DNA of 63,698 nucleotides, counting the filler, from an uncultured Gemmatimonadota bacterium (GTDB lineage: Bacteria; Blakebacterota; Blakebacteria; Blakebacterales; Blakebacteraceae), in NCBI GenBank assembly GCA_964576115.1. It is 3 parts of 3 records of this genome, joined end to end, with 100 filler letters (N's around TTAATTAATTAA, not from the genome) between each part and the next. Parts side by side here need not be neighbours in the genome. Positions count along the whole stretch, not along the records: positions 20,464 to 51,797 come from CAZNUA010000040.1; 2 more parts are not named here. The stretch is one strand, 5' to 3'. Positions within the stretch are counted from its first letter, which is position 1. Each line of letters starts with the position of its first letter. Position numbers and translations under genes: made by a program. The notes under the pieces were generated by a model that saw nothing but the letters and a program-made list of their open reading frames with translations, did not search any database and was not told the origin of the DNA. Below, piece after piece: positions 1,695 through 50,859 of the stretch.

Positions 1695-1722
1695 ATCCGG
1701 GGTCAAGGAGGAAAGGGATACG

Positions 1723-3218: not shown

Positions 3219-3318
3219 NNNNNNNNNNNNNNNNNNNNNNNNNNNNNNNNNNNNNNNNNNNNNNNNNNNNNNNNNNNNNNNNNNNNNNNNNNNNNNNNNN
3301 NNNNNNNNNNNNNNNNNN
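3219..3318. other. Assembly gap (100 N)
   Basis: Run of N. Confidence 0.99.
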
Positions 3319-3383
3319 GGTGACCGGGCTTTTTTCACCCGTGGATATGCAGCGCGAATCCTGTCGGCTCTGTCTTATCGGCT

Positions 3384-11603: not shown

Positions 11604-11620
11604 GTCTAAGGATCCCCGGC

Positions 11621-12238
11621 ATGGTCGAACTCACGGTCAGCGGGCTCGAGAAGAAGTACGGCCGCCGCACGGTTTTCCGCGACCTGGAGCTGAGGTGCGC
11701 CGGGGGCGAGATCGCGATCGTGACCGGTCCGAACGGAAGCGGGAAGAGCACTCTGCTACGCACTCTGGCCGGTCTGGAACGGCCCGATGCCGGGACCGTG
11801 CACTGGAGCGAGCACGGGCGGACCTGGGAGCGGGCCGAGCGCCGGCGCCGGATCGGTTTCCTGAGCCCCGACCTCACGTTTTACCGTGAGCTGACCGCGG
11901 TCGAGAACCTGCGTTTCTTCGCCCGTCTGCGGGGCCGGCCGGTCGCTGTGGCCGAGATCGACACCCGGCTCGAAGAGGTCGGTCTCGGAACCCGGGCCGG
12001 CGACCGGGTGGCGGAGTATTCGACCGGCATGGTCCAGCGCCTGCGCCTGGCCTTCGCCCGGCTCGGGTCCCCCCCGGCCCTGCTGCTCGACGAGCCGGGG
12101 CAGAACCTCGATCGGGCGGGGACCGCCCTGGCGCTCGAACTCATTGCCGTGGCCCGCAGCGAAGGCTGCGGTATCGTTGTCGCCACCACCGTCGAAACAG
12201 AGAGGGAGCTGGGCGATGTCGAAGTCCGTCTCGGCTGA
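11621..12238 (+). CDS. ccmA: Heme exporter ATP-binding protein CcmA
   Basis: Walker A GPNGSGKST, YSTGMVQRL, LLLDEP; first gene of the ccmABCD run. Confidence 0.85.
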   Translation: MVELTVSGLEKKYGRRTVFRDLELRCAGGEIAIVTGPNGSGKSTLLRTLAGLERPDAGTVHWSEHGRTWERAERRRRIGFLSPDLTFYRELTAVENLRFFARLRGRPVAVAEIDTRLEEVGLGTRAGDRVAEYSTGMVQRLRLAFARLGSPPALLLDEPGQNLDRAGTALALELIAVARSEGCGIVVATTVETERELGDVEVRLG

Positions 12239-12908
12239 AGGGCGTCTGGCCGGCGCGGCCCTGGCGGTGCTGGTCAAGGAGGTGCGCTGTGAAGTGCGGG
12301 CCGGGTCGGCCCTGCTCACCATCGCCCTTTTCGCCCTGGTGACCCTGACGGTGGTTTCCTGGGGAATCGGCGGCCGCAGCCTCGAACCGGTGGTGCAGGC
12401 CAGCCTGCTCTGGACAGTGCTCTACTTCGCCGCCTCGGTCGGTCTGGCCCGGACCTTCGTGCAGGAAGAGGAGACCGGAACCGCCCTGGCCCTGCGTCTG
12501 GCGGCCGATCCGCCGGCCGTGCTGGCGGGCAAACTGTTCTTCAACATTCTGTTGCTCACGGCCCTGACCCTGCTCGTCACCCCTCTCTTTCTGGCCCTGC
12601 TCGCCGTTCCGGTCCTCGCCCCCGGTTCTTTTCTGCTCCTGCTCGCGATCGGGATCGTCGGCCTGGCGGGGGTCTCGACCCTGGTGGCGGTGATCATCGC
12701 CCGGGCCCGCCTGCGGGGGCCGCTCTTCGGGGTGCTGGCCTTCCCGATCCTGCTCCCGGTGCTCCTGGTCGCGGTCCGCGGCACCGAACTGGCTCTGATC
12801 GGAGCGCCCCCCGCTACGCTCGGTCCCTATCTGGGTTCACTGGCCGGTTTCGCCGGCGCCGCAGTAACGATAAGCTTCCTGCTCTTCACCCCGATCTGGG
12901 AAGGATGA
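12216..12908 (+). CDS. ccmB: Heme exporter permease CcmB
   Basis: KEVRCEVR..RTFVQEEETGT..GKLFFN..LAFPILLPVL; 6 TMs; overlaps ccmA. Confidence 0.88.
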   Translation: MSKSVSAEGRLAGAALAVLVKEVRCEVRAGSALLTIALFALVTLTVVSWGIGGRSLEPVVQASLLWTVLYFAASVGLARTFVQEEETGTALALRLAADPPAVLAGKLFFNILLLTALTLLVTPLFLALLAVPVLAPGSFLLLLAIGIVGLAGVSTLVAVIIARARLRGPLFGVLAFPILLPVLLVAVRGTELALIGAPPATLGPYLGSLAGFAGAAVTISFLLFTPIWEG

Positions 12909-12911
12909 GCC

Positions 12912-13598
12912 GTGCGTCGCGGGCTCACAACAACCGTCCTGCCGGTCGTGACCGGTCTCTGGCTCGCGGCCGCCATAGCGGCCGCCTTCACGGCCGTGCC
13001 GCCGATCCGCGGGCTGGGCGAGCTGAGCCGGATCGCCTGGTTTCACATTCCCGCCGCCTGGGTAGCGGTGCTGGCTTTCACGGTGGCCACGGTCAATTCG
13101 GTCCTCTACCTGCTGAGACGTCAGCGTGCCGGCGGCCGAGCTGCAGGAGCCGACGACCGGGCCGCGGCTGCCGCCGCCCTGGGTCTGCTTTTTGCGCTAC
13201 TGGCCACTCTCTCGGGCGCCTTCTGGGCCCGGCGGGCCTGGGGGGCGTTCTGGAACTGGGATCCCCGTCAGGCGAGCATCGTCATCCTGCTGCTGCTCTA
13301 CGGAGCCTACTTCGCCCTGCGGGCGGCGGTGGATGAGGAGCGCCTGCGGGGCACGCTGGCCGCGGCCTACAACATTCTGGCTTTTCTGACCGTGCCGTAC
13401 CTGATCTTCGCCGTCCCCCGGATCATGGACACCCTGCACCCCGATCCGCTCTTCACGACCGGTTCGGGAGGCGGTATGGCGGGCGGCATGCTGCTCGTTC
13501 TGCTTGCCACCACGGCCGGTTTTACCCTGCTTTTCTTCTGGATGTTCTCGATCGCCGTCCGCCTGCGGCGGCTGCGGCGGGAGGTATGTGATGAGTGA
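12912..13598 (+). CDS. ccmC: Cytochrome c biogenesis heme chaperone-loading protein CcmC
   Basis: WFHIPAAW; WWD motif GAFWARRAWGAFWNWDPRQ; TLHP. Confidence 0.9.
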   Translation: MRRGLTTTVLPVVTGLWLAAAIAAAFTAVPPIRGLGELSRIAWFHIPAAWVAVLAFTVATVNSVLYLLRRQRAGGRAAGADDRAAAAAALGLLFALLATLSGAFWARRAWGAFWNWDPRQASIVILLLLYGAYFALRAAVDEERLRGTLAAAYNILAFLTVPYLIFAVPRIMDTLHPDPLFTTGSGGGMAGGMLLVLLATTAGFTLLFFWMFSIAVRLRRLRREVCDE

Positions 13599-34358: not shown

Positions 34359-35333
34359 TCAGTCTGCCGCACCGGCGGAGCCGATCTCGCTTTCGATACG
34401 TTCGATGATGAAGGGAATCTTCTCGCGTGAGAAGTCCACCCCGAGTTTTTCGAGCTCGGCCTGCGGCCGAAGCTGCATAAAGACTCCGCGGGCATAGATG
34501 TTGTGCTGGACCATGAAGTTACACCAATCCTGATAGGTAAAATCGTACCGCGGGAACTTGGTGTGCCTGATCGTTGTCAGACCCATCTCGTAGAGGACTT
34601 CGTCGGTGTTCTCGATATAAAAGGCCGGCGAGGGCAGCAGCTGCTGACCGAACCGCTCGAAGAGGGGTTCGAGGATCTGCTTGCGCACGCTCACCATCTG
34701 GCCGATCCAGACGCCGGCGCCTTCCATATGGGCGCCCGAGGTTGTGTACCTGATGCCGTGTTCGGCATTGAACACGATCGCCGCGGCATGCATGCCCAGC
34801 TTGCAGGGCCCGCAGAAGAGCTGGGCGAAGAGGCCGTATTTGTCCAGACACTCCTTGAGCTTTTCGTTGTAGATGGCCTGACAGAATTCGTCTACATCAA
34901 TGAAATGATGCTCGATCTTTTCGGGTCCGTAGATGTCCTGCAGCGTACGGACGTTGATTTTCGGGGGTTCCCCATCGTGCGTGCCCAGGTGGGCGAAGGT
35001 CAGCAGATGTACTTTGCGGAAACGTCCGGCCAGCTGGTATGCGGAGTAGGTGGAATCGGCCCCACCGGAGTAGAGCACCGAAATCTCTTCGGATTCCGCA
35101 TCCGGGATCTCGGCGTACACACCTGGAGCGGCCTCAGTGTCCACGCTCAGTCCCTGCTGGATGTTGCCGGTCGCAATCGCCAGCCGCTGCAGCGCCCCGA
35201 CCATTTTGAGCATCGGGTGCAGTACCCGCCAGATCGCTCCGGCCAGGATATCCTTCTGTTTCAGGGGCAGAAGGCGGAACAAATGGGACAGCACGAAACA
35301 GACCGGCACGACCGCGATTCTGATGATCCGCAT
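34359..35333 (-). CDS. PP-loop ATP pyrophosphatase family protein (QueC-like fold)
   Basis: VLYSGGADST PP-loop; FCGPCKLGMH Cys motif. Confidence 0.7.
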   Translation of the reverse strand: MRIIRIAVVPVCFVLSHLFRLLPLKQKDILAGAIWRVLHPMLKMVGALQRLAIATGNIQQGLSVDTEAAPGVYAEIPDAESEEISVLYSGGADSTYSAYQLAGRFRKVHLLTFAHLGTHDGEPPKINVRTLQDIYGPEKIEHHFIDVDEFCQAIYNEKLKECLDKYGLFAQLFCGPCKLGMHAAAIVFNAEHGIRYTTSGAHMEGAGVWIGQMVSVRKQILEPLFERFGQQLLPSPAFYIENTDEVLYEMGLTTIRHTKFPRYDFTYQDWCNFMVQHNIYARGVFMQLRPQAELEKLGVDFSREKIPFIIERIESEIGSAGAAD

Positions 35334-35512
35334 GGGCTCCCTTCTCTCGCGCGCCCCTCATTCAATCATCGGGCCTTCTCGAGTGTCAATATAGGAGTAC
35401 CAACGAATTCCCGGACCCGGTTTTCCCGACGATTTCGATCCCGGTTGCTGGTAGAATGATCCGGCGGTACCCTGACCGACCTGTGTTTCTCCGAGCCGGC
35501 GGTGCCTGACGA

Positions 35513-37381
35513 ATGTGCGGAATTTTCGGACAGATCTCGCTCACGGGGGGTGAACCCGACCCGAGGGTTCTGGAACGGGCTCTTGCCCGCCTGGAGCACC
35601 GCGGCCCCGACGACGCCGGTACCCACCGGGACGGTCCGCTCGTCATGGGTGCGCGCCGGCTGGCTGTCGTCGATATCGCCGGCGGGCACCAGCCCCTGGC
35701 CAACGAAGCGGGTACGGTCTGGGTGGTCTTCAACGGCGAGATATACAACGACTCCGATTTGCGCGAGGAGCTGCGGGAACAGGGTCACACGTTCAGAACC
35801 CGGTGCGACACCGAGGTTCTGGTGCATCTCTACGAGAACGATCCCGACCACTTCCTCGACCGTCTGAACGGGATGTTCGCCCTGGCCCTGTGGGACGCCG
35901 AACGCAGGCGCCTGGTTCTGGCCCGCGACAGGGTCGGGCTGAAACCGCTCTTCATCGCCGAATGGGAAGGCAGTCTCTATTTCGCCTCGGAGATGAAAGC
36001 CATTCTGGACGTACCCGGATTCGAACGGTCCTGGGACTACGAAGCCATCGATCATTATTTCTCTTTTTATTATCCCAACGCCCCGGCCACCCTGTACCGA
36101 CGGATCCGCCGGATCATGCCCGGCGAATGCGTGCGGGTCGAAGGGGGCCGGGTAACCCACCGGCAGTACTGGAATCTGCGCTATGAAACCGATCGGGGAC
36201 TGCGCAACGACGACATGGTCCCCGCCTTTCACTCCCTGCTCGAAGACGCGGTGAAGCGGCACCTCAGGAGCGAGGTGCCCGCGGGCGTGTTTCTTTCCGG
36301 GGGGCTCGATTCGGCGAGCCTGGTGGCGGTGATGTCCCGTTTCGTGGACCGCGTGCGCACCTATACCGTCGGGTACGAAGAGACCTCGTACAGCGAGTTC
36401 GCCACAGCCCGCAGTGTGAGCGAGCGTTTCGGGACCGATCACCACGAATGTCTTCTCACTCCCGACCTGGTGCGGGAGAATCTCCCGGCCGTCATCAGAC
36501 AACTCGACGAACCGCACGGTGACTGGACTTATCTGGCCCACAGCTGGCTTTCCCGCTTCTCGGCTCAGGACGGCGTGACCGTCGTTTTCGCCGGCACGGG
36601 AGGAGATGAGCTCTTCGGCGGGTATCCGACCTATGTCGCCGCCCGGCTGGCCCGGCTGTACCGACTCCTTCCCGCAGTCCTGCGCCGGGGCTTCATCGAA
36701 CGGCTCGTCGCCCGCCTGCCAACCTCGTATCGACGGATGTCCTTTGACTTCAAAGCCAAATCCTTCGTTGCGGGGGCCTCTCTGGAACCCGAACGGGCCC
36801 ACCTGCGCTTCAAGGAGATATTCACGCCCGCGCAGCGGGCGGCTCTCTTTACCACCGCCATGAAAGAGGCCATCGGAGTCTCCGACAGTTTCGATGTTTT
36901 CGCCCGGCACCTGGCGATGATTCACGAACCCGAGCTCATCAACCGGCTCATGTATCTCGATTTCAGAACCTTTTTGCCCGACGGCACTCTCTACCCGATC
37001 GACATCGTGACCTCGGCGCACTCCCAGGAATGCCGGGCGCCGCTGCTGGACACCGAACTGGTTGATTTCGCCGCCCGGGTTCCCTGGCGCTGGAAACTGC
37101 ACGGTTCCACGACCAAGTACCTCATCCGCCGGGCCATGAAGGACAGCCTGCCCCGGGAATGCATCCGCATGCCCAAGAAGGGATTTCTGCTGCCGAGCGG
37201 TCCCTGGCTGCGTCAACCGCTGTACGAGTTCGCCCGTCAGATAATCGGAGACTGCACCCGTCACGACGATCTGCTCGAGCGAAAGGAAATGGAGCGACTG
37301 CTCTCGGAACACCGGGACGGTCGGGCCGATCATACCCGCCGGCTGACCTGTCTGCTGGCATTTCTTCTCTGGGCCGATTGA
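35513..37381 (+). CDS. asnB: Asparagine synthase (glutamine-hydrolysing)-like amidotransferase
   Basis: MCGI with catalytic Cys; HRGPDD, RRLAVVD, FNGEIYN, LSGGLDS, GTGGDELFGGY; the glycosyltransferase context suggests glycan amidation. Confidence 0.9.
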   Translation: MCGIFGQISLTGGEPDPRVLERALARLEHRGPDDAGTHRDGPLVMGARRLAVVDIAGGHQPLANEAGTVWVVFNGEIYNDSDLREELREQGHTFRTRCDTEVLVHLYENDPDHFLDRLNGMFALALWDAERRRLVLARDRVGLKPLFIAEWEGSLYFASEMKAILDVPGFERSWDYEAIDHYFSFYYPNAPATLYRRIRRIMPGECVRVEGGRVTHRQYWNLRYETDRGLRNDDMVPAFHSLLEDAVKRHLRSEVPAGVFLSGGLDSASLVAVMSRFVDRVRTYTVGYEETSYSEFATARSVSERFGTDHHECLLTPDLVRENLPAVIRQLDEPHGDWTYLAHSWLSRFSAQDGVTVVFAGTGGDELFGGYPTYVAARLARLYRLLPAVLRRGFIERLVARLPTSYRRMSFDFKAKSFVAGASLEPERAHLRFKEIFTPAQRAALFTTAMKEAIGVSDSFDVFARHLAMIHEPELINRLMYLDFRTFLPDGTLYPIDIVTSAHSQECRAPLLDTELVDFAARVPWRWKLHGSTTKYLIRRAMKDSLPRECIRMPKKGFLLPSGPWLRQPLYEFARQIIGDCTRHDDLLERKEMERLLSEHRDGRADHTRRLTCLLAFLLWAD

Positions 37382-38310
37382 TGGAAGGGGAGATTCGACA
37401 TACATTGGATGCCATGAGTGAACAACCTGTCAGCGTCGTACTTCCCGCCTTCAACGAAGCAGCCACGCTCGCAGAAGACCTCGCGGCGATCAGAGAGGCT
37501 TTCTCCGGGACAGGTATCGCCTACGAGTTGATCGTCGTGGATGACGGATCGACCGACGAAACCGCTTCGATTGCAGCCGGGATGCCGGATGTCCGTCTGA
37601 TCCAGCACGAGTTCAACCGCGGTGTGGGAGCCGCACGAATGACGGGTATCAGAGCGGCCGAACACGAATGGATCGTCACCACCGATACCGACGGTACTTA
37701 CCCGAACCACGAGATGCCGCGCCTGGTCCGGCTGCTGGCCGATTACGACATGGTCATCGGAGCCCGGACCGGTTCCAATGTGGCCCGCTCGTGGATCCGG
37801 GCTCCGATCAAATGGCTGATCAGGATGCTGGCCTCGTACCTGGCCCAGAGGCGCATCCCCGACCTGAATTCCGGCCTGCGGGCTTTCCGGAAAACCGAGG
37901 CGCTGAAATTCTTCTACCTGCTGCCCGAATCGCACAGCTGGGAGAGCACGATCACACTCGCCTTCCTGACCAACCGGCGGCGCGTGAAGTTCGTCAGCGT
38001 GGACTACTACCAGCGCCGGGGGGGACGTTCCAGCTTCCATCCCCTGGTCGACACCAACAACTACCTCCAGCTCGTGATCCGGACGATCATGTATTTCCGG
38101 CCCCTGCGGATATTCCTGCCCTTGAGCCTGATCATCTTTGCCGTCGGCGCAATCAAGACCATCAGCGACTGGATCATCTTTCGCGACATCGGCGGAGCGG
38201 ATGTCATCATCATCCTGTTCGCCATCGTGATCGCGGTAGCCGGACTGCTCGCCGATCTGATGGTCGTCCTGCATCGCAAGCAGGATGCGGCGGAAGATCT
38301 GCACCCCTGA
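37381..38310 (+). CDS. GT2 glycosyltransferase (polyprenol-phosphate glycosyltransferase-like, 2 C-terminal TMs)
   Basis: VVLPAFNE, VVDDGSTD, TDTDGTY (DxD), DLNSGLRAF. Confidence 0.9.
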   Translation: MEGEIRHTLDAMSEQPVSVVLPAFNEAATLAEDLAAIREAFSGTGIAYELIVVDDGSTDETASIAAGMPDVRLIQHEFNRGVGAARMTGIRAAEHEWIVTTDTDGTYPNHEMPRLVRLLADYDMVIGARTGSNVARSWIRAPIKWLIRMLASYLAQRRIPDLNSGLRAFRKTEALKFFYLLPESHSWESTITLAFLTNRRRVKFVSVDYYQRRGGRSSFHPLVDTNNYLQLVIRTIMYFRPLRIFLPLSLIIFAVGAIKTISDWIIFRDIGGADVIIILFAIVIAVAGLLADLMVVLHRKQDAAEDLHP

Positions 38311-38338
38311 GCGTGTTCCGGAACGAAGGAAACAGGAT

Positions 38339-41029
38339 ATGAGTGCCGCCAGTCAGCGATCGCGATCATCCGCCGCCGTTACCCCGTCCCTGCTCCCCGC
38401 TCTGATCGCCGGCGCGGCCGGGGCGCTGATTTTCATTCTGCAACTCAATCCCTGGGCCAACTGGCGGGACGGCGCCGAGTTCATCGGTGTCGCCTCCACC
38501 TTCGGGATCGCCCACCCGACCGGGTATCCGCTCTACGCCCTGTTGAGTCGTCTGTCGGTTATCATCCTGGGCTGGCTCACCGGCGCCGTCACAGCCGCGA
38601 ACCTGCTCTCGGCGCTGGGTGCCGGAGCGACCTGCGCGGTCATGACCACCATCTCGCTGCGGCTTTTCGTCTTCCTGCGACTCGGGCCGCTGCCCCGCAT
38701 CATCAGGATCGGTGCGGCGCTGCTGCCTCCGGCCATTCTGGCCGGCATCGGTGTCTTCGTGGATCAGGCGATCGTCGCCGAGGTCTACACCCTCAATACC
38801 CTGCTGGCCGGACTGCTCATTCTGTGCGGCCTGATCAGCATCCAGCAGGCCGAACATCCGCGGCCGATCTCGGCCGAGAACGGAGAGATCCGCAGCGGTT
38901 GGTGGGGCGAGCAGCCGGGGGGATGGCGCTACCCGCTCCTGATGGCCTATCTGGCTGGAGTGGCGACCGGCAACCACCTGACAATCGTTCTCTACTATCC
39001 CGCCCTGGCCCTGATGCTGCTCTGGGCACTTTCGCCCGAGACTCAAGCACGCTTTTTCAACCGGAAGCAGGAAAAACGGGGCGTTTTCACCATCGCGGCG
39101 CCGCTGGCGATCTTCTTCGCACTGGGTATCACCATCTACCTGCTCATCCCCCTGCGGGCGAGTCTGAACCCGCCCTATAACTGGGGAGACGCCTCGACCC
39201 TGAGAGGCTTCCTGCGTCTGGTCACCGCGGCCGAAATCCGGGCCCGCCCCGGAACCTACTTCCCCATTACGCCCTTCAACATCTGGGGCAGGATCGCGGC
39301 GGACACGGGCTGGATCGTCCTTGTCCTCTCGCTGCTCGGCTGGGTTCTGGCCGGCCTGCGCTGCCGCCGGCTGGGCTTGATCTCGCTGGCGTACTTTCTC
39401 TTCCCCCTCTTCTTCCTGATTCTCGGACTCGATATCATCGATGACGCCCTGCTGCCCTTCCACCTCTGGGTCACCCTGGGGGCGGCCCTGCTGGGCGTGC
39501 TGGTGGCCGAACGTCTGGTCTCGCTGCTCGGTCCCGTCCGCGGCAGGAACCTGGCCCTGACCGTGCTCGGGCTGTTTCTGGTTTTCGGGCCGGGCTGGCG
39601 GATCGCGGCGAACTGGGGCCGATACACTCCGCCGGCCGAGGGCGGCGCCGAGACCTACGCGCAGGCCGTCATCGCTTCGGTCAGCGGAACCGCCGAACCG
39701 ACGGGCGACGTGGAGGGATGGGTCTTCTGCGAGGACAATACGACTGTTTTCATGCTCTGGGATTACGAGCGCCGGCTCCAGGAGCATCCCGACCTCTACG
39801 GCATCTACCTGCTGCTCGCCCGGGAACAGTGGTATCAGCAGGAGCTGCGTGCCCGGGTGCCGGAACTGACGGTCCCCCAGCTGGACCGCTCCTACGAGAG
39901 GTTGCCGCACGGCGCGGCGGCCCGGGAGCTGATCGCCGCGAATACCGACGCCGACCGGCCGCTCTTTCTCAGTCCGATCCAGCTGCCGCCAACCGAGGTA
40001 TACGGCGTGCTCGTGCCACAGGGTGTGCTCTTCCGCATGGAACCGCCCGGTTATGTCCCCACCGAGCAGGACATCCGGCGTCACGTCGAGATCATGAGCG
40101 CCTATGCGCCCGCCTTTCAACAGGACGAACTTCCGGCTCTCGATCCACAGGCCGTCGACCACTGGAGCTGGAAGCACCTGCGGATCGGTGAAGCCTGGCT
40201 GCGCCTGGGAATGCTGCCGGCAGCCGAAGCGGAATACCGGGCGGCGGTGATGACGGCTCCCGAACGGATCGAAACCTGGCAGGAAATGGCTGCTTTCTAC
40301 ACCATCGTCGGCGATGTGGAGGGCACCGAGGCGGCCCTGCGCGAAGCCCTCGCCCTCGAACCGCGTAACGAAGAGATCCGGGTCATGCTGGCTCGAGCCC
40401 TGAGCCTTCGGGGGGCCTTTGCCGAGGCTGACAGTCTGCTTCCGACCGGCCGACTCAGAAGTGTTCCCCGTGCCGAATATCTTCAGGTGCGGGCCGGTAT
40501 CAGACTGGGGTTCGGGAATGCCGCGGCGGCGTTGACCGATCTCGAGGAAGCCACCCGGCTGGCTCCGGACGACGGCGAAATCTGGAACGATCTGGGAGTC
40601 GTCTACCTGCAGCGCGGACGGTGGGAAGAGGCTACCTCGTCGTTCGAGCGGGCGGTCGAACTGTATCCCGGTCTGAGCGAAGCGTGGATGAACCTCGGCT
40701 TGATCGCAACCCAGAATTCCGAGTGGGAAAACGCCGCGGAGTACCTGAGACGGGCGATCGAAGCCGGCGTGAACACCCCGGAAGCCGGTCACACCCTGGG
40801 CATCGTCCGTTTCAACAACGGCGACTACGCCGGCGCCGAAGAAGCCCTGCGGGACAACCTGCGGGCCTGGCCCGAGCATGCCGACAGCTATCTGGCTCTC
40901 GGCTATCTCTACGAGCAGACCGGCCGGATCCGGGAAGCGATCGCGCTGTACAATGCCGGTCGGGCCGCCGTTCCGGGCGACGGCCGCTTCGCCCAGCGCC
41001 TGCGGAATCTGCAACCGCCACCCGACTGA
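38339..41029 (+). CDS. DUF2723/TMEM260-like GT-C membrane protein with C-terminal TPRs
   Basis: DGAEF..GIAHPTGYPLY, AEVYTLN, NHLT, YLLIPLRA..PYNWG; many TMs; several TPRs (IWNDLGVVY, AWMNLGLI). Confidence 0.85.
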   Translation: MSAASQRSRSSAAVTPSLLPALIAGAAGALIFILQLNPWANWRDGAEFIGVASTFGIAHPTGYPLYALLSRLSVIILGWLTGAVTAANLLSALGAGATCAVMTTISLRLFVFLRLGPLPRIIRIGAALLPPAILAGIGVFVDQAIVAEVYTLNTLLAGLLILCGLISIQQAEHPRPISAENGEIRSGWWGEQPGGWRYPLLMAYLAGVATGNHLTIVLYYPALALMLLWALSPETQARFFNRKQEKRGVFTIAAPLAIFFALGITIYLLIPLRASLNPPYNWGDASTLRGFLRLVTAAEIRARPGTYFPITPFNIWGRIAADTGWIVLVLSLLGWVLAGLRCRRLGLISLAYFLFPLFFLILGLDIIDDALLPFHLWVTLGAALLGVLVAERLVSLLGPVRGRNLALTVLGLFLVFGPGWRIAANWGRYTPPAEGGAETYAQAVIASVSGTAEPTGDVEGWVFCEDNTTVFMLWDYERRLQEHPDLYGIYLLLAREQWYQQELRARVPELTVPQLDRSYERLPHGAAARELIAANTDADRPLFLSPIQLPPTEVYGVLVPQGVLFRMEPPGYVPTEQDIRRHVEIMSAYAPAFQQDELPALDPQAVDHWSWKHLRIGEAWLRLGMLPAAEAEYRAAVMTAPERIETWQEMAAFYTIVGDVEGTEAALREALALEPRNEEIRVMLARALSLRGAFAEADSLLPTGRLRSVPRAEYLQVRAGIRLGFGNAAAALTDLEEATRLAPDDGEIWNDLGVVYLQRGRWEEATSSFERAVELYPGLSEAWMNLGLIATQNSEWENAAEYLRRAIEAGVNTPEAGHTLGIVRFNNGDYAGAEEALRDNLRAWPEHADSYLALGYLYEQTGRIREAIALYNAGRAAVPGDGRFAQRLRNLQPPPD

Positions 41030-41072
41030 GATGTTCTCCCGGTGCCGCTCGTCCGGCTGCTCGTGCGGCCGG

Positions 41073-41855
41073 ATGTATATCCTGCTCCTACCCGCTCTCA
41101 CCTTCCTGCCGGTCGCCTGCACGTCTTCGGTGACCGCGCCCCCGAAACTGGCGGCCCCGACCGAGGTGAGACTCGTCCGCCTGTCGGCGGGGAGCTACGT
41201 ACTACGCTGGAACGACCGGTCGCAGGACGAGGAGGGTTTTCTCATCGAGCGGAGTTTCTCGGCATCGGAGGGTTTCGAACAGATCGCCACCGTAGCGGCT
41301 GACACCACCTCCTGGACGGTCTCGGGACTCGATTCGACCCGAACCCATTACTTCCGGATAGCAGCTTTCAACTCAGCGGGCCGCTCCGCGTATTCCCCGG
41401 TCGTGGATACCGCTCATATCATTCAGCACATCGGCGACCTCGCTCTCGATTTCACCGCTCTGGATCAGAACGGACAGGAGGTCTCTCTCTCCGACTACTC
41501 CGGCCGGGTCATCGCCCTGTATTTCAACACCTACAATACCGACACCTGACTGCCGTCGGGGAACGAGGTCTCGTTCCTGAACGGTCTGCACAACGACTAT
41601 GCGGGTTCGGCCTTTCAGCTGCTGGTCATTCTGGTCAACGGGACGCCCTCTTCGTGGAACCTCGAGATAGGGTCGGCAGCGTATCCGATCCTGGACGATT
41701 CCGCCCGCACGATCCACTCCTCGTTCGGCGGCGGCGGCTGGCCCCTGTTTGTGGCGATCGATTCCGAACGGATCATCCGGTTCCTGCAGGCGGGGACGAT
41801 CGCGGCCCGCGAAGCGGACCTGCGCGCCACGATCAATGAGCTCCTCACGCCCTGA
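41073..41855 (+). CDS. FN3 + thioredoxin-fold (redoxin) lipoprotein, candidate selenoprotein (UGA at 41547-41549 read as Sec)
   Basis: Lipobox PVAC; FN3 (WNDRSQDEEGFLIERS..YFRIAAFNSAGRSAYS); DFTALDQNGQEVSLSDYSGRVIALYF; TGA then 101 more open codons with redoxin features (YPILDD..GWPLFVAID..IIRF) to TGA 41853-41855; alternative start 41031. Confidence 0.8.
41560..41577 (+). promoter_or_regulatory. Putative bacterial SECIS element
   Basis: GGAACGA-GGTC-TCGTTCC hairpin starting 10 nt after the in-frame UGA. Confidence 0.72.
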
Positions 41856-41894
41856 CAGCGCCCGTTCGGCACCCGAGTGCAGAGATCGCCCGAT

Positions 41895-42584
41895 TCAATC
41901 CGGCGGAACCCGTTCCATGCGGAAATCGCGGCCGCGCTGGTGAATGACAAGGGCAATCGCGACGCCCTTTTCGTCCCGGACGAACGTCATACCCGATTTG
42001 AAGTCCTGCGTGAAGAACTCCGTTTCCGATTCGGGAACGAACTCGGAGCGGGGCTCGTGCGGCGGGTCGATGAAGAGCCGATCCCCTTCGACGACGACCT
42101 CGTATTCCACTCCCGAGTCGTGCCGGTAGCGGCCGGCATAACTTGCCAGAACCCGCGGCTCGGGAGCGATCGCAATTCTGTCGTTGGGGACGTTTTCCCA
42201 GAGGACATGCACGACCTGCCACTGCCCCCGCAGACAGGCCAGACTCAGGTACTCGGTGTAGTAAGCCGAATCGATCCGGATCACCGCGGTGGTCCGAGCC
42301 CGATCGAGGACGGCGATGTCGATCTCGCGTTCGTCCTCCGGGGTGGCGCTGTCCCCCCCCCGCCGGGCGTTGGCCAGAAGGGCGTCGCGATCGGTCTCGA
42401 GGAAGAAATCTTCGTCGGAGGTGGTAACGGCGGCGATCCGCCGCACGAAAGCGGGGTGCAGAACGCGCCCGACCCGTTCAGCATCGCCTGCATACCAGCC
42501 CTCGACATAATCGCGGGCGGCCTGCAGCAGGTCCTCCGGATCGCGGCGGGTGTCGAGCGTCAGGAGCAGGACGATCGGAGCAGC
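41895..42584 (-). CDS. NTF2-like (lumazine-binding type) + DUF3471-like domain protein, 5' end in gap
   Basis: DYVEGWYAGDAERVGRVLHP..EYLSL..WQVVHVLW; then LASYAGRY..PESETEFF. Confidence 0.7.
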   Translation of the reverse strand, partial: AAPIVLLLTLDTRRDPEDLLQAARDYVEGWYAGDAERVGRVLHPAFVRRIAAVTTSDEDFFLETDRDALLANARRGGDSATPEDEREIDIAVLDRARTTAVIRIDSAYYTEYLSLACLRGQWQVVHVLWENVPNDRIAIAPEPRVLASYAGRYRHDSGVEYEVVVEGDRLFIDPPHEPRSEFVPESETEFFTQDFKSGMTFVRDEKGVAIALVIHQRGRDFRMERVPPD

Positions 42585-42684
42585 NNNNNNNNNNNNNNNN
42601 NNNNNNNNNNNNNNNNNNNNNNNNNNNNNNNNNNNNNNNNNNNNNNNNNNNNNNNNNNNNNNNNNNNNNNNNNNNNNNNNNNNN
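42585..42684. other. Assembly gap (100 N)
   Basis: Run of N. Confidence 0.99.
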
Positions 42685-42718
42685 GGCAATAGGACTTAAG
42701 TCCCCATTTTCCTCCCGA

Positions 42719-46229: not shown

Positions 46230-48338
46230 CTACCGGATACTGACCATCAGCCAGAGCAGCAAAATGATCACCCCTACCAGCACCCAGCTGCCGAAGAAGC
46301 CGAGGTAGTCGAGGGGCGTGGGTTTCAATATCTCCCACTGCGATCCGGGCCAGATTTTCTCCTGCTCGTACCGGCCGGGATCGGCGTAGGCCGCCGCCAG
46401 GGCCCGTTCCTCCTCCTCGGGGGTGGGCTGAACCGGGGTGTGCATCTTCGCGAAGAAGCGATCGAGATGCTCTTTGCCGACCGGCCGGGTGAGGAAACTG
46501 ATCGCGAAGAGGAGCAGAAAGGGAAAGACGGCGCTGAAAAAGAAGCGCAGGGCTACCAGCCACGATTTCGGGCTCCGGCTGAAATCGAACCCGAACCAGC
46601 TCAGCACCCACAGCTCGGCTTCGAAGCGTCCTACTCCGACCCGGGGGGAGTCGGGATCGTCGGGATCTTCGCGGGCCACCGATTCGAAGAAGATGGCCGC
46701 CGGCTCGATGGTGTGCTCTTTCGTGATCGGCTCGCCGACGCGGCGTGCCCGCCCCTCGTCGACATCCTCCTGCAGGGCTTCGGCCTCGACGACGACCGTA
46801 CGGGCCTCGGTCTGGCGCAGGAAAGCCGGATGGTGGGTAGCCCACGGCATCGAGGCGAAGAGGTTGGGGATGACGGCGTAGATGGCGATACAGATGACGA
46901 CCTGGACCCAGACCGCCGGGCGGGTCAGACGCCGCCAGAGAAAACCGAGCCAGATCGAGGCGCCGAAGATGGCCGGTATGGCGATGGCATACTTGAACAG
47001 CTCGAGCAGATCGTCGACCAGGATCGCCACCAGCAGGCCGCCCACCAGAGTGACCGCGATCGCCCAACGCCCCACCGCCAGGTAATGCTCCTCACTGCGT
47101 CCGGGACGCAGGGGTTCGTAGACATTCTTGATGAACAGGGCCGAGTAGGAGACCGACGAGGCGTCCAGCGTACTCATGTTGGCCGCCAGGATACCGACCA
47201 GCATCAGACCGATGGCGCCGGGGATGAGCAGATCGCGGGTCATGAAGCCCCAGATCAGGTCGGGATCGTGCAGCTGGCCAGCATAGAGCCCGATCGCCAG
47301 CAGCCCCGCCAGGGCCCAGAAGATCATGATCACCCGTTTGAAGAACATCCCCCCGATCATGCCGAAGCGGGCCGTCATTTCGTCTTTGGCCGAACCGGAG
47401 GTCTGCATGCCGGTCGCCACGGCCACAATCGAGACCAGGTTGGCCAGGACCATGGCCAGGATGGTGTACCAGCCGTAATCGCTCAGGGCTCCCGAGCCGA
47501 AGAGATCGAACATGTAGTCGGGCACAGCCGCATGCAGGCCGCTGAAGCCGCCGATCCGGGACAGTCCCAGGGGAATGAGAATCAGGCTGAAGATGACGAT
47601 CAGCACCCCCTGGATCGAGTCGGTGATGGCCGCGGCCCGAAACCCTCCCAGCATGGTGTAGATCCCCACGATCAGCGCGAAGATGAAGTAGAAAACGACA
47701 ACCTTTGTGTGCGAGGCGAAGCTGCGCAGTTCCCCCAGCTTGTTCTTCTCGTTCAGCACCTCGTAGCGGGCTTCTTCTTCGGCACTGAGGCCGGCCTCGG
47801 CACGCTGGTCGAGCAGATCCTGGTACTCGCGGAACTCGAGGATGCTCTGTTGCTCGGCGGCGGTGCACTCCTCCATGGTTTTCGGCGTCAGGGCCTGGAA
47901 GGTCTTGCCGGCCACCATGAAGCCGACCCCGCCGCCGAGGATCGAGACCAGCAGGATGAACACGGCATACGCCCCGCCGAGCGGTTTGGAGCGAAAGCGC
48001 TCGGTGAAGTAATCCCCCAGGGTTGTCAGACGCACCCGCCGGAAGAGATAGACGGTGAACCAGTAGAAGGGAGTCAGGAAGAGCACCAGGTACTGGATCC
48101 ACATCCCCCCGATGCCCTGGCGGTAAATCTCGCGCGAGACCGCCACGGCCTGATCGGCGTTGGTGGAGCAGCCGAAGTTGAGGAAGAACTGGTAGACCTT
48201 GCCCAGCTTGCGCCCGGCCAGGTAGAAATCGCCGGTGTCCTTCGTGCCTTCGGCCGCCCGCTTGCCGATCCAGATGATGACGACGACATACGCGGCGATG
48301 ATCAGGGCGTCGATGATGTGCAGGCCGAAAACCCTCAT
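46230..48338 (-). CDS. Sodium:solute symporter family protein
   Basis: DFYLAGRKLG, YTMLGGFRAAAITDSIQG, GILAANMSTLD; many TMs. Confidence 0.9.
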   Translation of the reverse strand: MRVFGLHIIDALIIAAYVVVIIWIGKRAAEGTKDTGDFYLAGRKLGKVYQFFLNFGCSTNADQAVAVSREIYRQGIGGMWIQYLVLFLTPFYWFTVYLFRRVRLTTLGDYFTERFRSKPLGGAYAVFILLVSILGGGVGFMVAGKTFQALTPKTMEECTAAEQQSILEFREYQDLLDQRAEAGLSAEEEARYEVLNEKNKLGELRSFASHTKVVVFYFIFALIVGIYTMLGGFRAAAITDSIQGVLIVIFSLILIPLGLSRIGGFSGLHAAVPDYMFDLFGSGALSDYGWYTILAMVLANLVSIVAVATGMQTSGSAKDEMTARFGMIGGMFFKRVIMIFWALAGLLAIGLYAGQLHDPDLIWGFMTRDLLIPGAIGLMLVGILAANMSTLDASSVSYSALFIKNVYEPLRPGRSEEHYLAVGRWAIAVTLVGGLLVAILVDDLLELFKYAIAIPAIFGASIWLGFLWRRLTRPAVWVQVVICIAIYAVIPNLFASMPWATHHPAFLRQTEARTVVVEAEALQEDVDEGRARRVGEPITKEHTIEPAAIFFESVAREDPDDPDSPRVGVGRFEAELWVLSWFGFDFSRSPKSWLVALRFFFSAVFPFLLLFAISFLTRPVGKEHLDRFFAKMHTPVQPTPEEEERALAAAYADPGRYEQEKIWPGSQWEILKPTPLDYLGFFGSWVLVGVIILLLWLMVSIR

Positions 48339-49366
48339 GCCTGATCTGCCGTCCCTTTCCCGGGGTGAAGGCGGTCCCAGGCCGAAAAGACCGCGAAGAT
48401 GTTCTCAGGCATGGCACCGGGCCCGAACTCGCACTGGGCGATGCAACCCCCGTCGGCCCAGAGGTTGTCATACACCCGTTCGACCGCCTGCTCAACGTCG
48501 GCCGGGGTTCCATAGGCCAGGATCTGCTGGCGGTCGATCTCGCCCCAGAAGGTGATCCGGCCGCGATAGAGCCGGCCGAGCTCTTCGATGTCCATGCAGA
48601 AAAGCTGGCTGTTCAGCGCATCCACACCCAGGGAGGCCAGCTCGCCGATGATGCCGGTGATATGACCGTCCGAATGCATGAAGACTTTCTTGCCCCGGGC
48701 CCGCGCGATCTCGGCGTAGTCGGCATAGAGGGGCCGAAAGTGCTCGTGCCAGATGGCCGGATCGACCATCAACCCCGCCTGGGTGCCCCAGTCGTCCATC
48801 AGGGCGATGGCGTCCACCCCGGTCGCAGCCCACGCTTCGACCTCGCGCAGGTAGAAACGGTGGATGGTGTCGAGCAGCTCGAAGAGTTCGGGAGGCTGTT
48901 CGAAGAGATCGATCAGGGCCTGTTCCATGGTGCGCAGGAAGCAGAGCCGTTCGAAGGGACGCACCACCGTACCGGCCAGGACGAACTCCTCGGAATCGCG
49001 GCAGAAGGCATTGATGGCGTCGACATCGAGGTCGAGAACGACTTCGGGGGGGGTGAAGTCTTCCAGATCGTCCCACGTCGCAATCAGAGGCTCGTGGACG
49101 ATGCCGATGATCCCGTCCTGCGGATTCTCGAACCGGCAGCCCCACTCGTCGATGTAAGCGCCCCGGCGGTAGCGCTCGCCTGTGACGGGAGGCGGCGAGC
49201 GGTAGAGCGCCGGAGCACCGACCAGATCGTCGGGCCAGGTGGCCCGCAGACGGACGACAGCATCGGGGTGGTTCCCTTCAGCCCAGGGCAGGAGCCAGGT
49301 CTGCCGGGGGATACGGGGAGGAGCGCCGAACTCGAGTGTGTCCCGAACGAGCTCCCGTGAGGTCAT
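48335..49366 (-). CDS. Uroporphyrinogen decarboxylase/MtaA-CmuA superfamily protein
   Basis: MTSRELV, IDEWGC, DDWGTQ, FMHSDG, FWGEIDRQ, PENI. Confidence 0.85.
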   Translation of the reverse strand: MTSRELVRDTLEFGAPPRIPRQTWLLPWAEGNHPDAVVRLRATWPDDLVGAPALYRSPPPVTGERYRRGAYIDEWGCRFENPQDGIIGIVHEPLIATWDDLEDFTPPEVVLDLDVDAINAFCRDSEEFVLAGTVVRPFERLCFLRTMEQALIDLFEQPPELFELLDTIHRFYLREVEAWAATGVDAIALMDDWGTQAGLMVDPAIWHEHFRPLYADYAEIARARGKKVFMHSDGHITGIIGELASLGVDALNSQLFCMDIEELGRLYRGRITFWGEIDRQQILAYGTPADVEQAVERVYDNLWADGGCIAQCEFGPGAMPENIFAVFSAWDRLHPGKGTADQA

Positions 49367-49392
49367 GTTCTCCCCTCTCGGCGGGGTGGGCA

Positions 49393-50694
49393 CTACCGCG
49401 AAAACAAAACGTATCGGGTAAAATCAATGCGCTCCCCCGCCTGCGCCCACTCTATTCCGTCCCCGGGTCCGGATTCGGAGGGCAGCCGTCCCTCGGCATA
49501 GCACCGACCGAAAACCTCATCCAGATTCCGGATCCAGAGCCGGGAACCGTCGGGAGCCCGATCGACGAGCTCGCTCCGGACCGTAACCGGTGCCCGAACC
49601 GATTCGTGGGCCCCGTTGACGACCAGGGTCTGAGCCCGGGCGGCCTCGGGGGGACAGATGACCTCCGCCCTGCCGGCCTGTCCGCCGTCCCGTCCGCCGG
49701 CCTGCCCCGGATGCACCCCCCTCCGTCCCGCCCACTCGATGGCCCGGAAGAGCTTGGTGAACTGATGACTCTCCTCGGGCGAACCGTAGTCGAGTTCTCC
49801 GCCGTCGGCAGTCACGGCCCGGACCGGCTCTCGTCCCCCCGCATAGCTGATCACGGCCTTTTCACACTCGATCCGGAAAACCGGCGGGTACTCGGACCCG
49901 GTAGCGTGGGAGCCGAGGAAGAGGAGTTCGGTCCCGGCCGCCGTCTCGACCCGGGCCGCCACCGTATCGGCTGTCTCGATCTCGTAGGCCCGGGCCATTT
50001 CGGCCGTGACCGCGACCGGTTCGGCACTGCGCTCGGTTTCGGGACCGAGCAGGTAGAGCAGGTTGTGCATGAAGTGGGCCATGGCGTTGTTCAGGGGAGT
50101 GTCGAGAATCCAGCGCCCCTCTCCCGAACGCAGCCGCCCGGCCCAGTCGTTGCGGGCGTAGTAGTCCCGTCCCCGGGGCCAGAGGCAGAGGGTCGCGGCC
50201 CGCAGCGGGCGGCCCCAGCGGCCGGCCATCAGGTCGGCCTTCAGAGCCCTGATTGCGTCGGAGAACGACCACTGATAGCCGACGCTCACCCAGCGGTCGC
50301 TCGCGTCACGGGCCCGGATCAGATCATCGGCTTCCTGTACCGCAGCCCCGAGCGGCTTGTCACAGAGCACATGACAGCCCTGCTCGAGACAGGTGATCGA
50401 CTGGGGGACATGGAAGTGGATCGGGGAGGAGATGACCGCCAGGTCGGCCGCACCGCCAGAGTTGAAGAACGTCTCGACACTCTCGTGCACGCCGATCCCG
50501 GCCTCGTGCACAGCCGGCAGGAGGGCCGAGTTCTCCGGTTGCGGGTCCACCACCCCGACCAGTTCGTACGCGGCCGGATCGCACTCCTCGAGCAGGGTTT
50601 TCAGATACCAGTAGCCGTAGCCTCCGATACCGATCATGAGGATGCGGACCCGGGCCGGCATACCGCTCTCGACGATTCCACCAGCTGACGACAT
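49393..50694 (-). CDS. Gfo/Idh/MocA family oxidoreductase
   Basis: IGIGGYG, SSPIHFH, HVLCDKP, VGYQW, NNAMAHF. Confidence 0.88.
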   Translation of the reverse strand: MSSAGGIVESGMPARVRILMIGIGGYGYWYLKTLLEECDPAAYELVGVVDPQPENSALLPAVHEAGIGVHESVETFFNSGGAADLAVISSPIHFHVPQSITCLEQGCHVLCDKPLGAAVQEADDLIRARDASDRWVSVGYQWSFSDAIRALKADLMAGRWGRPLRAATLCLWPRGRDYYARNDWAGRLRSGEGRWILDTPLNNAMAHFMHNLLYLLGPETERSAEPVAVTAEMARAYEIETADTVAARVETAAGTELLFLGSHATGSEYPPVFRIECEKAVISYAGGREPVRAVTADGGELDYGSPEESHQFTKLFRAIEWAGRRGVHPGQAGGRDGGQAGRAEVICPPEAARAQTLVVNGAHESVRAPVTVRSELVDRAPDGSRLWIRNLDEVFGRCYAEGRLPSESGPGDGIEWAQAGERIDFTRYVLFSR

Positions 50695-50859
50695 GTTCTT
50701 CCCTCCGGAAGACAACCCGAAACGTGCGGAGTGTAGCACGCCACTCGGCACCTCGGCCATGTCGAGCCATCGAGCGGCGAGCACCTTGAGATTCGGCCTT
50801 CCCGGATTCTATGATGATGGTCTCTCGTTCCGGCCTATCTGCACCAGACGAGGAAGCTG

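Follow-up and report, generated by a model that had tools for sequence, protein, structure and literature searches.

Locus and features

The stretch analysed here, referred to as the window, comprises 63,698 nucleotides (filler included) from the assembly GCA_964576115.1 of an uncultured Gemmatimonadota bacterium. At 41073..41855 on the plus strand, within the part taken from record CAZNUA010000040.1, lies a candidate selenoprotein gene, in which a signal segment, a fibronectin type III (FN3) domain and a thioredoxin-fold (redoxin) domain are encoded in one frame across an internal TGA. This codon is predicted to be read as selenocysteine (Sec, U) with the help of a selenocysteine insertion sequence (SECIS)-like hairpin directly behind it. 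The features of the locus are as follows.

41073..41855, plus strand: full candidate selenoprotein coding sequence, 260 codons with Sec as codon 159, then a TGA stop
41073..41120, plus strand: hydrophobic segment with LPVAC at its end (Cys16), judged from its sequence to be a putative lipoprotein signal
41154..41408, plus strand: FN3 domain, residues 28-112 (Pfam fn3, PF00041, 31 bits, cut-off 25)
41430..41819, plus strand: TlpA/ResA-like thioredoxin-fold (AhpC-TSA/Redoxin) domain, residues 120-249, across the UGA
41547..41549, plus strand: in-frame TGA, putatively read as Sec (U159), first position of U-L-P-S, placed by the homologue column and by structure alignment
41552..41585, plus strand: SECIS-like element with a 5-bp lower stem, a 2x2 internal loop, an 8-bp upper stem and a GGUC loop
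41742..41744, plus strand: codon of the conserved cis-Pro (GWP-LFVAID), invariant column P238 in alignments A2 and A3
41853..41855, plus strand: TGA serving as the actual stop, not followed by a SECIS-like hairpin
41031..41072, plus strand: possible N-terminal extension of 14 codons from an alternative ATG, in frame with 41073

Reading frame and base call

A preliminary description of this DNA had the open reading frame (ORF) track stopping at YFNTYNTDT*, with the frame staying open for 101 codons more, and exactly this was found. Translation from the ATG at 41073 reaches an in-frame TGA at 41547-41549 (codon 159) directly after ...VIALYFNTYNTDT, and 101 further open codons lead from there to the TGA at 41853-41855. 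GC contents at codon positions 1, 2 and 3 are 0.61, 0.48 and 0.85 after the TGA at 41547 and 0.58, 0.48 and 0.77 before it, and the neighbouring genes are alike. TGA is also the commonest ordinary stop, closing 23 of the 32 window ORFs tallied (most, not all, of them Pfam-supported), and thus the organism does not generally read TGA as sense.

The alternative ATG at 41031 lies 1 nt past the stop of the upstream gene, and the extension adds the n-region MFSRCRSSGCSCGR with three Arg to the signal peptide. Judged from the sequence, this start is a possible alternative; the public gene call of the locus (P0002) begins at 41073.

The TGA at 41547 is no assembly error. An independent metagenome contig (L003), 99.7% identical to window positions 34369-42580 with 24 mismatches and no gaps, keeps the codon as TGA, not TGC or TGG. 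Logan contigs from four runs of three studies (sediment, seawater and estuary) likewise span it with no difference there; two of these four may have yielded the window itself and were not counted as independent. Run X5 covers 18 of 30 bins. Among the runs listed, no RNA run containing the window sequence was found.

Domains, signal segment and active site

Both redoxin models of Pfam cross the TGA: AhpC-TSA (PF00578) covers residues 120-236 with 45.8 bits (cut-off 26, E 6.9e-12), and Redoxin (PF08534) residues 121-249 with 27.5 bits (cut-off 26.6). In phmmer alignments against PDB sequences, residue 159 pairs with the leading Cys of the motif in both 3kcm (WCPPC) and ResA 4nmu (WCKPC), and S162 stands opposite the second Cys of these WCxxC motifs. 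Relative to both proteins, the window protein retains the Glu three residues past the motif as well as the cis-Pro loop (GWPLFVAID). The UGA had been placed beforehand at the catalytic Cys of a TlpA or peroxiredoxin-type protein, as TxxU or UxxS. Its position and the UxxS form stood, aligned with the first Cys of WCxxC, and the peroxiredoxin TxxU did not; a TlpA/ResA-type CxxC in which Sec takes the first place and Ser the last (U-L-P-S) describes the active site better. The CxxC dithiol of TlpA/ResA/DsbE reductases is absent, the motif being U-L-P-S in the window and U-L-P-T in L003. As had been stated for the redoxin domain, there is no Cys in residues 17-260; the only one in the protein, C16, ends the signal-like segment.

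The lipobox region of the window protein (...TFLPVAC) has Pro at -3 and is non-canonical with respect to [LVI][ASTVI][GAS]C. Hydrophobic segments of its homologues end in GLTGC, AFSGC, LICGC and TISC. From the Cys-ending hydrophobic segment and the canonical lipoboxes of the relatives we infer that the product is exported and lipid-anchored via Cys16.

For structure prediction, an AlphaFold2 model was obtained with five family members aligned. The mean predicted local distance difference test (pLDDT) score is 72.7, with 86-96 in the FN3 part and 60-85 in the redoxin part. In numbering from 41031, the model shows a strand at 160-165, a loop holding the Sec position and a helix at 177-190. Foldseek searches with the model returned FN3 structures (TMt up to 0.81), Bcp1 (3drn, TMt 0.66) and a thioredoxin-family protein of Geobacter (3kcm, TMt 0.67).

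Homologues and public gene calls

For the homologue search, the redoxin part alone was run against nine genomes of the phylum of G001. Five of the 14 matches contain exactly one in-frame TGA, and four of these five, from metagenome-assembled genomes (MAGs) labelled Gemmatimonadota, have the architecture of the window gene (hydrophobic signal ending in Cys, FN3, redoxin) at 31-38% identity.

G001:C159: homologue of 256 aa, motif URPG
G003:C491: homologue of 251 aa, motif UGAC
G004:C141: homologue of 269 aa, motif UGPC
G007:C43: homologue with motif UPAC, its N-terminus masked by Ns and supplied by database protein P0161

In alignment A2 (11 rows), five columns are invariant, the Sec/Cys column among them. 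All 11 rows have one of the two residues, as anticipated in the preliminary description, with TGA in seven and Cys in four; the Cys rows are three membrane-anchored WCGPC/WCQWC proteins and P0154. A separate MAFFT alignment puts the TGAs of the five FN3-redoxin genes into one column. In both alignments TGA was written as C, which slightly favours a shared column; the flanks support the column independently. Between the G003 and G004 genes the ratio of nonsynonymous to synonymous substitution (dN/dS) is 0.23 past the Sec codon (97 codons) and 0.21 before it, all other pairs being synonymously saturated. Conservation beyond the UGA, a hallmark of selenoproteins, is thus seen both in the four TGA homologues and in this downstream dN/dS.

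The fifth TGA match (G004:C47:7713-8075; L041:901-1923) encodes a TlpA-like protein with the candidate Sec motif WGDW-U-PPC and a non-FN3 N-terminal region of about 200 residues. Its UGA has no hairpin at the 17-nt register (see below), the stem there being 3 bp. In G003 (L045:927-1544) and G004 (L043:10472-10966) the FN3-redoxin gene stands head to head with another AhpC-TSA gene. The G003 neighbour is signal-bearing, with a single Cys (...WKESCPHN...), and the window has no such neighbour.

A profile built from the five-member alignment found 45 proteins at E<=1e-5 among 8,000 scored candidates. Eight of them, including P0002 from the window, are N-terminal fragments of the FN3-redoxin architecture (121-170 aa) that end right before the Sec position (...NFAASW, ...NFGAWT, ...NLSADW, ...NTYNTDT), and one is a C-terminal fragment of 89 aa. 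The 26 members listed for the nine clusters are all 89-170 aa long and all unnamed. For the 170-aa and the 89-aa fragment of one relative, the longest contig listed is in both cases 54,160 bases. By precomputed Pfam annotation, none of the 45 proteins combines PF00041 with a redoxin family, so a Cys-form of the architecture was not seen among them; nor did the nine genomes contain a Cys-form of the lipoprotein-FN3-redoxin architecture.

Other queries gave less. The full read-through protein had 150 listed database matches, all of which except P0002 aligned on the FN3 part alone (giant multi-FN3 proteins). Word-based searches with the single sequence returned P0002 (the truncated protein itself), one FN3 protein and, at E = 3 only, P0154. 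In a pattern scan of genome contigs with the window protein, 100 stretches matched and none was confirmed.

The SECIS-like hairpin

The hairpin GGAACGA-GGUC-UCGUUCC had been reported 10 nt after the UGA, and it is present at 41560-41577, starting 10 nt past the TGA. Its upper stem comprises 8 bp including one G.U pair (41559-41566 with 41571-41578) around the apical loop GGUC (41567-41570). The loop starts 17 nt past the UGA, and the first 48 nt fold at -20.2 kcal/mol. Excerpts of a 2026 review (PMC13188914) give the rules for bacterial SECIS (bSECIS) elements as a loop of 3-9 nt, a stem of 4-16 bp, a G in the first two loop positions, a distance of 16-37 nt from the UGA and a minimum free energy of -7.5 kcal/mol or lower. 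All of these published constraints, as excerpted, accommodate the window hairpin, with its 4-nt loop, 8 bp, 17-nt spacing and -20.2 kcal/mol (PMC13188914).

For comparison, the fdhF sequence of Escherichia coli K-12 was used. It reads GCA-GGUC-UGC with the loop 18 nt past the UGA, and the previously noted likeness of the AGGUCU apex to the fdhF SECIS held up. The two elements thus share an apical A-GGUC-U and a loop 17-18 nt past the UGA. With this apex, the window element could plausibly be recognised by E. coli SelB. They differ in that the upper stem of the window element is a perfect 8-bp helix, its sequence otherwise unrelated to that of fdhF. A bulged U is important for binding of E. coli SelB, and such an fdhF-type bulge is not evident in the window hairpin.

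Background frequencies were counted across the window. A stem of at least 8 bp with a GG-initiated loop of 3-4 nt at the 17-nt register occurs at 5 of 63,002 positions, and a stem of at least 6 bp with a GG loop at the same register at 41 of 63,002. Only one of the 802 plus-strand UGA triplets, that at 41547, is followed by a stem of at least 6 bp with a GG loop. Only one further UGA in the window, at 47326 on the minus strand, has a GG-initiated loop (GGGC) on a stem of at least 6 bp at the 17-nt register. That hairpin is probably due to chance, since its UGA does not share the frame of either of the two long minus-strand ORFs overlapping it, the SSF transporter and 47092..48513.

Comparable hairpins were found in the relatives. 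In all five distinct FN3-redoxin genes and in the selD gene of G002, a stem of 6-8 bp carries a loop at nt 20 counted from the U of UGA, the loops of these six Sec genes being GGUC, GGUC, GGCU, GGCC, GGC and GGC. Counted from the loop, the stems covary at pair 3 (C-G/U-A/G-C), pair 4 (A-U/G-C/C-G), pair 5 (A-U/G.U/G-C) and pair 6 (G-C/U-A). The peptides encoded at the hairpin differ among the homologues (NEVSF, SEASL, AEAPH), so a conserved peptide does not account for the stem pairing. Six redoxin genes of the same genomes that encode Cys served as a control, and no more than 4 contiguous pairs were found in them near that register.

Selenocysteine machinery in the clade

Sec machinery was scored in the closest genomes as a proxy for the organism of the window. 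The preliminary description had made its reading depend on such machinery, and selA, selB, selD and tRNA-Sec were all found among these genomes. Scores over the curated cut-off were obtained for selA in all nine related genomes, for selD in seven of the nine and for selB in both genomes tested (G001 and G002). G001 and G003, both fragmented assemblies, gave no selD match. The tRNA-Sec of G002 scored 58.6 bits (gathering score 47), with anticodon UCA and loop CUUCAAA; it is cut by the contig end and lies behind selD. ARAGORN reported no tRNA on this contig (L010), where Infernal found the 3'-cut tRNA-Sec at the contig end. In G007, selA lies 3.5 kb from the FN3-redoxin homologue. The window itself contains no sel genes by a Pfam scan of long ORFs and no tRNA genes by ARAGORN.

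Six of the seven selD genes contain an in-frame TGA of their own, so that SelD is itself a selenoprotein in six of the nine genomes, with one in-frame TGA in the context ...SCAG-U-ASK... The G002 gene has a GGC-loop hairpin 17 nt past its UGA, with tRNA-Sec directly next. The genes lie as follows.

G002:C29:33541-34667 (L004, L010): selD with in-frame TGA
G004:C273, G006:C168, G007:C40, G008:C130 and G009:C118: selD with in-frame TGA

TGA-free selD matches were seen in three genomes, in a frame of 451 aa in G005 and of 741-771 aa in G006 and G007. The length of the latter frames suggests a fusion.

Fast evolution of the window gene and weighing of the readings

Several observations weigh against the selenoprotein reading. 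The 71-nt segment folds with a z-score of only -1.24, 28 of 200 shuffles folding equally well. Rfam returned no SECIS family, with 8 weak unrelated matches for 41000-42000 at E<=10 and none over the whole window at gathering scores. Since the loop's GG falls on a conserved Glu codon with Ala or Val encoded next, protein conservation accounts in part for the loop letters by themselves, but not for the stems. The Sec genes seen are those of relatives; in G001, the closest and a fragmented MAG, selA and selB passed their cut-offs and neither selD nor tRNA-Sec did. In the AlphaFold2 model, the active-site block has a pLDDT of just 67-71, and DSSP begins helix 1 four residues past Sec. The mature window protein has no resolving Cys and carries a 3-residue insertion before U, the subclade of window and G001 having lost this Cys and gained 2-3 residues at that place.

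The gene has also changed fast. It is 36% identical (91/254) to the G001 homologue, against 83% for the URO-D and 78% for the TMEM260-like protein of the same pair of organisms, and dN/dS past the UGA is about 0.69 relative to G001, with dS saturated. Seven of the 24 differences between window and L003 fall into its 783 of the 8,212 nt compared (binomial p = 0.006). Three of them are synonymous (codons 6, 17 and 39, in the signal and FN3 part) and four nonsynonymous (S143P, S162T, N255D, L257F). The nonsynonymous and synonymous counts are accordingly 4 and 0 in the redoxin part and 3 and 14 in the other genes (Fisher p = 0.006; p = 0.02 once the one synonymous change of run X5, at 41609, is added to the redoxin part). 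This fast change, judged from sequence comparison, fits either relaxed constraint or rapid adaptive change. An untranslated tail does not fit, since the diverged window and G001 copies keep the UGA, the hairpin, the frame and the landmark residues.

With these points set against the homologue column, the hairpin and the Sec machinery of the clade, 41073-41855 (+) is very probably a genuine selenoprotein gene missed by annotation. The hidden in-frame UGA with a read-through redoxin behind it, the core of the preliminary description, was confirmed, and its selenoprotein inference is supported.

The alternative that survives best, though an unlikely one, is that the window copy is a decaying relic. 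Either translation stops at the UGA at 41547, giving a 158-aa FN3 lipoprotein, or Sec is inserted without a catalytic role, and the downstream frame persists only since little time has passed. Such decay would agree with the 4:0 excess of nonsynonymous changes in the redoxin part, with all three window-L003 synonymous changes sitting in the signal and FN3 part, and with a dN/dS of about 0.5-0.7 relative to G001. It would also agree with the 36% identity to the G001 homologue beside 78-83% for neighbouring genes, and with the lost resolving Cys and the insertion before U. Against it, the window and G001 copies, diverged as they are, both retain the UGA, the 100-codon frame, the cis-Pro loop, the FPILD motifs and the hairpin (8 and 6 bp). 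The window hairpin ranks among the best of the family, GC3 past the UGA is 0.85, and run X5 shows one downstream synonymous change. By estimate, an open frame of 101 codons has a chance of about 1 in 10 at this GC content, but the conserved residues are not expected by chance.

Insertion of one of the standard amino acids (Trp, Cys or Gly) at the UGA, through a near-cognate or suppressor tRNA or an alternative code, is highly improbable. The frame is open and conserved across the UGA under this explanation too. Against it, TGA stops 23 of the 32 tallied window ORFs, the end of this very gene included; the aligned residue of homologues is the catalytic Cys; a covarying SelB-type hairpin follows with the canonical spacing; and selA, selB, selD and tRNA-Sec occur in the clade. 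A split into two genes, one for an FN3 lipoprotein and one for a redoxin fragment translated on its own, matches the public callers' N-terminal products of 158-170 aa and the 89-aa C-terminal product of one relative, but this is the least credible explanation, as the thioredoxin fold would be cut after strand 1 and before helix 1 and would lose its nucleophile, the 89-aa call begins at an internal Met well past the active site, and the TGA column is invariant at 31-38% identity.

The surroundings of the gene differ between window and G001. A trio of GFO_IDH_MocA, URO-D-like and SSF-transporter genes at 46233-50784 (minus strand) of the window is syntenic with L046:2344-6753 (G001:C159). In G001, the FN3-redoxin homologue lies just upstream of the trio, beside an alanine racemase gene. 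In the window, the FN3-redoxin gene is found past the opposite end of the trio, at a distance of about 4.4 kb, and the Ala-racemase/GFO/URO-D/SSF cluster is 4-9 kb away. The differing positions point to a local rearrangement around a fast-evolving gene, as far as gene order can tell.

Proposed mechanism

Under the selenoprotein reading, a ribosome arriving at the UGA at 41547 would meet the hairpin at 41552-41585, whose GGUC loop, 17 nt on, would recruit SelB.GTP.Sec-tRNA(Sec), and selenocysteine would be inserted as residue 159. The product would be exported and probably lipid-anchored through Cys16, with FN3 as a possible spacer or docking module ahead of the TlpA/ResA-like domain. Sec would take the place of the nucleophilic Cys of CxxC. 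The UxxC relatives may then cycle via an intramolecular selenenylsulfide, like thiol-disulfide reductases of the envelope. The forms without a resolving Cys (ULPS in the window, ULPT in L003, URPG in G001) are most likely single-selenol enzymes. Oxidation of their selenol could give a selenenic acid, with an external thiol recycling the enzyme in the manner of a peroxidase (GPx-like), or the selenol could form mixed selenenylsulfides with the thiol of a substrate, client or partner. Gene neighbourhoods give little help in choosing between these chemistries.

A bolder and rather doubtful proposal is that lipoprotein-FN3-redoxin proteins form an obligately Sec-dependent envelope family, in which the lineage of the window has switched from UxxC to a fast-evolving single-selenol UxxS/T/G form that has no described envelope counterpart. 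In such a family, the member of the window lineage could act as a periplasmic or surface selenoperoxidase, or as a selenol trap or sensor on an FN3 stalk.

Comparison with known systems

Selenocysteine-containing redoxins of several related kinds have been described. As excerpted, the table of the 2026 review includes a 'Prx-like thiol:disulfide oxidoreductase' (PF00578, UxxC/UxxU; PMC13188914), and the tables of the Sargasso Sea paper include Prx-like and thiol-disulfide isomerase-like UxxC families (PMC1088965). TlpA-like, Prx-like and UxxS AhpC/TSA-like redoxins with Sec are already catalogued in the excerpts of both sources, in which UxxT is the motif given for GPx-like selenoproteins (PMC13188914, PMC1088965). 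The catalogued TlpA/Prx-like selenoproteins, compared by their excerpted descriptions only, resemble the window protein in the AhpC-TSA/TlpA fold, in Sec for the first Cys of CxxC and in a SECIS behind the UGA. The window protein differs by the fusion of a lipoprotein-type signal and FN3 and by UxxS; UxxC as in the catalogued families is found in its G003, G004 and G007 relatives. A catalogued UxxS AhpC/TSA-like selenoprotein shares with the window ULPS a single selenol without resolving Cys. By its excerpted description it belongs to cd02970, with no FN3 or lipoprotein mentioned there, while the best PDB and NCBIfam matches of the window protein suggest the TlpA-like cd02966.

Among curated families, NCBIfam NF041054 ('ResA-like WAxxUGC motif-containing protein') is likewise a ResA-like redoxin with Sec in the active site. 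Its 354-position model has another N-terminal part and another motif; the window protein gave no match to it at E<=0.01, and the relatives scored 29.8-32.9 bits against a cut-off of 300. The window protein scored 29.2 bits with the ResA subfamily (cut-off 170), 21.3 with TlpA (230), 14.9 with NF053656, the TUGYCR thioredoxin-fold (seleno)protein (100), and 12.9 with NF040737 PrxU (270). No NCBIfam family was reached at its cut-off by the window protein or its relatives.

ResA, TlpA and CcmG (DsbE) are membrane-tethered, extracytoplasmic reductases. The window protein shares with them the fold, the position of the nucleophile, a Pro within xx, the Glu after the motif and the cis-Pro loop, and differs in having Sec for Cys, no second Cys and an FN3 stalk.

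An FN3-lipoprotein selenoprotein architecture was not found in the selenoproteome literature searched, the supplementary tables of which could list it. Neither 'fibronectin' nor 'lipoprotein' appears in the main texts of the 2026 review and the deep-Sep paper, and 'fibronectin' is likewise absent from that of a 2022 review. The earlier remark that the architecture is unrecognised among described selenoproteins stands to this extent and has to be narrowed in another: with Sec TlpA-like, Prx-like and UxxS redoxins catalogued, the kind is known, and the FN3 stalk, the putative lipid anchor and UxxS are the new parts. The genes form a small family with a new architecture inside a known kind of selenoprotein, and the window member is an atypical, fast-evolving single-selenol form.

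The family bears on several matters. Its members are cut at the Sec codon in public calls, which leaves each such genome short of a redox enzyme and with a spurious 'FN3 protein' instead. Its hairpins, with their fixed 17-nt register, provide an internally controlled bacterial SECIS that could become a lineage-specific search model. The change from UxxC to UxxS/T/G in a putatively envelope-anchored selenol among close relatives amounts to a natural experiment on Sec versus Cys outside the cytoplasm. For ecology, it adds evidence for a selenium dependence of these sediment and seawater bacteria.

Neighbouring genes and other observations in the window

Directly upstream of the FN3-redoxin gene, two genes occupy 37159-41029 (plus strand). 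One encodes a GT2 glycosyltransferase and the other a TMEM260-like protein (GT-C type, 914 aa) that carries TPRs at its C-terminal end. The FN3-redoxin and TMEM260-like genes may be co-transcribed, the stop of the latter lying 1 nt before the alternative start at 41031. The TMEM260-like/TPR gene matches two MAGs labelled 'uncultured Gemmatimonadota bacterium' at 78% and 66% identity, and in neither of them does an FN3-redoxin gene follow it. As its downstream neighbour in L001 and L002 is a different gene, the operon context is not conserved.

Just downstream of the FN3-redoxin gene, a lumazine-binding/DUF3471 ORF (41898-42689, minus strand) is broken by a run of Ns at about 42550-42650. Several masked runs between 3219 and 51897 bring the Ns of the window to 376. 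At 11555-13595 (plus strand), 28 kb from the FN3-redoxin gene, lies a ccmA/ccmB/ccmC-like cluster (ABC_tran, CcmB, Cytochrom_C_asm) for cytochrome c maturation; this pathway normally uses a reductase of the TlpA/CcmG type. At 246-3519 (plus strand), two large adjacent proteins with GWxTD domains are encoded.

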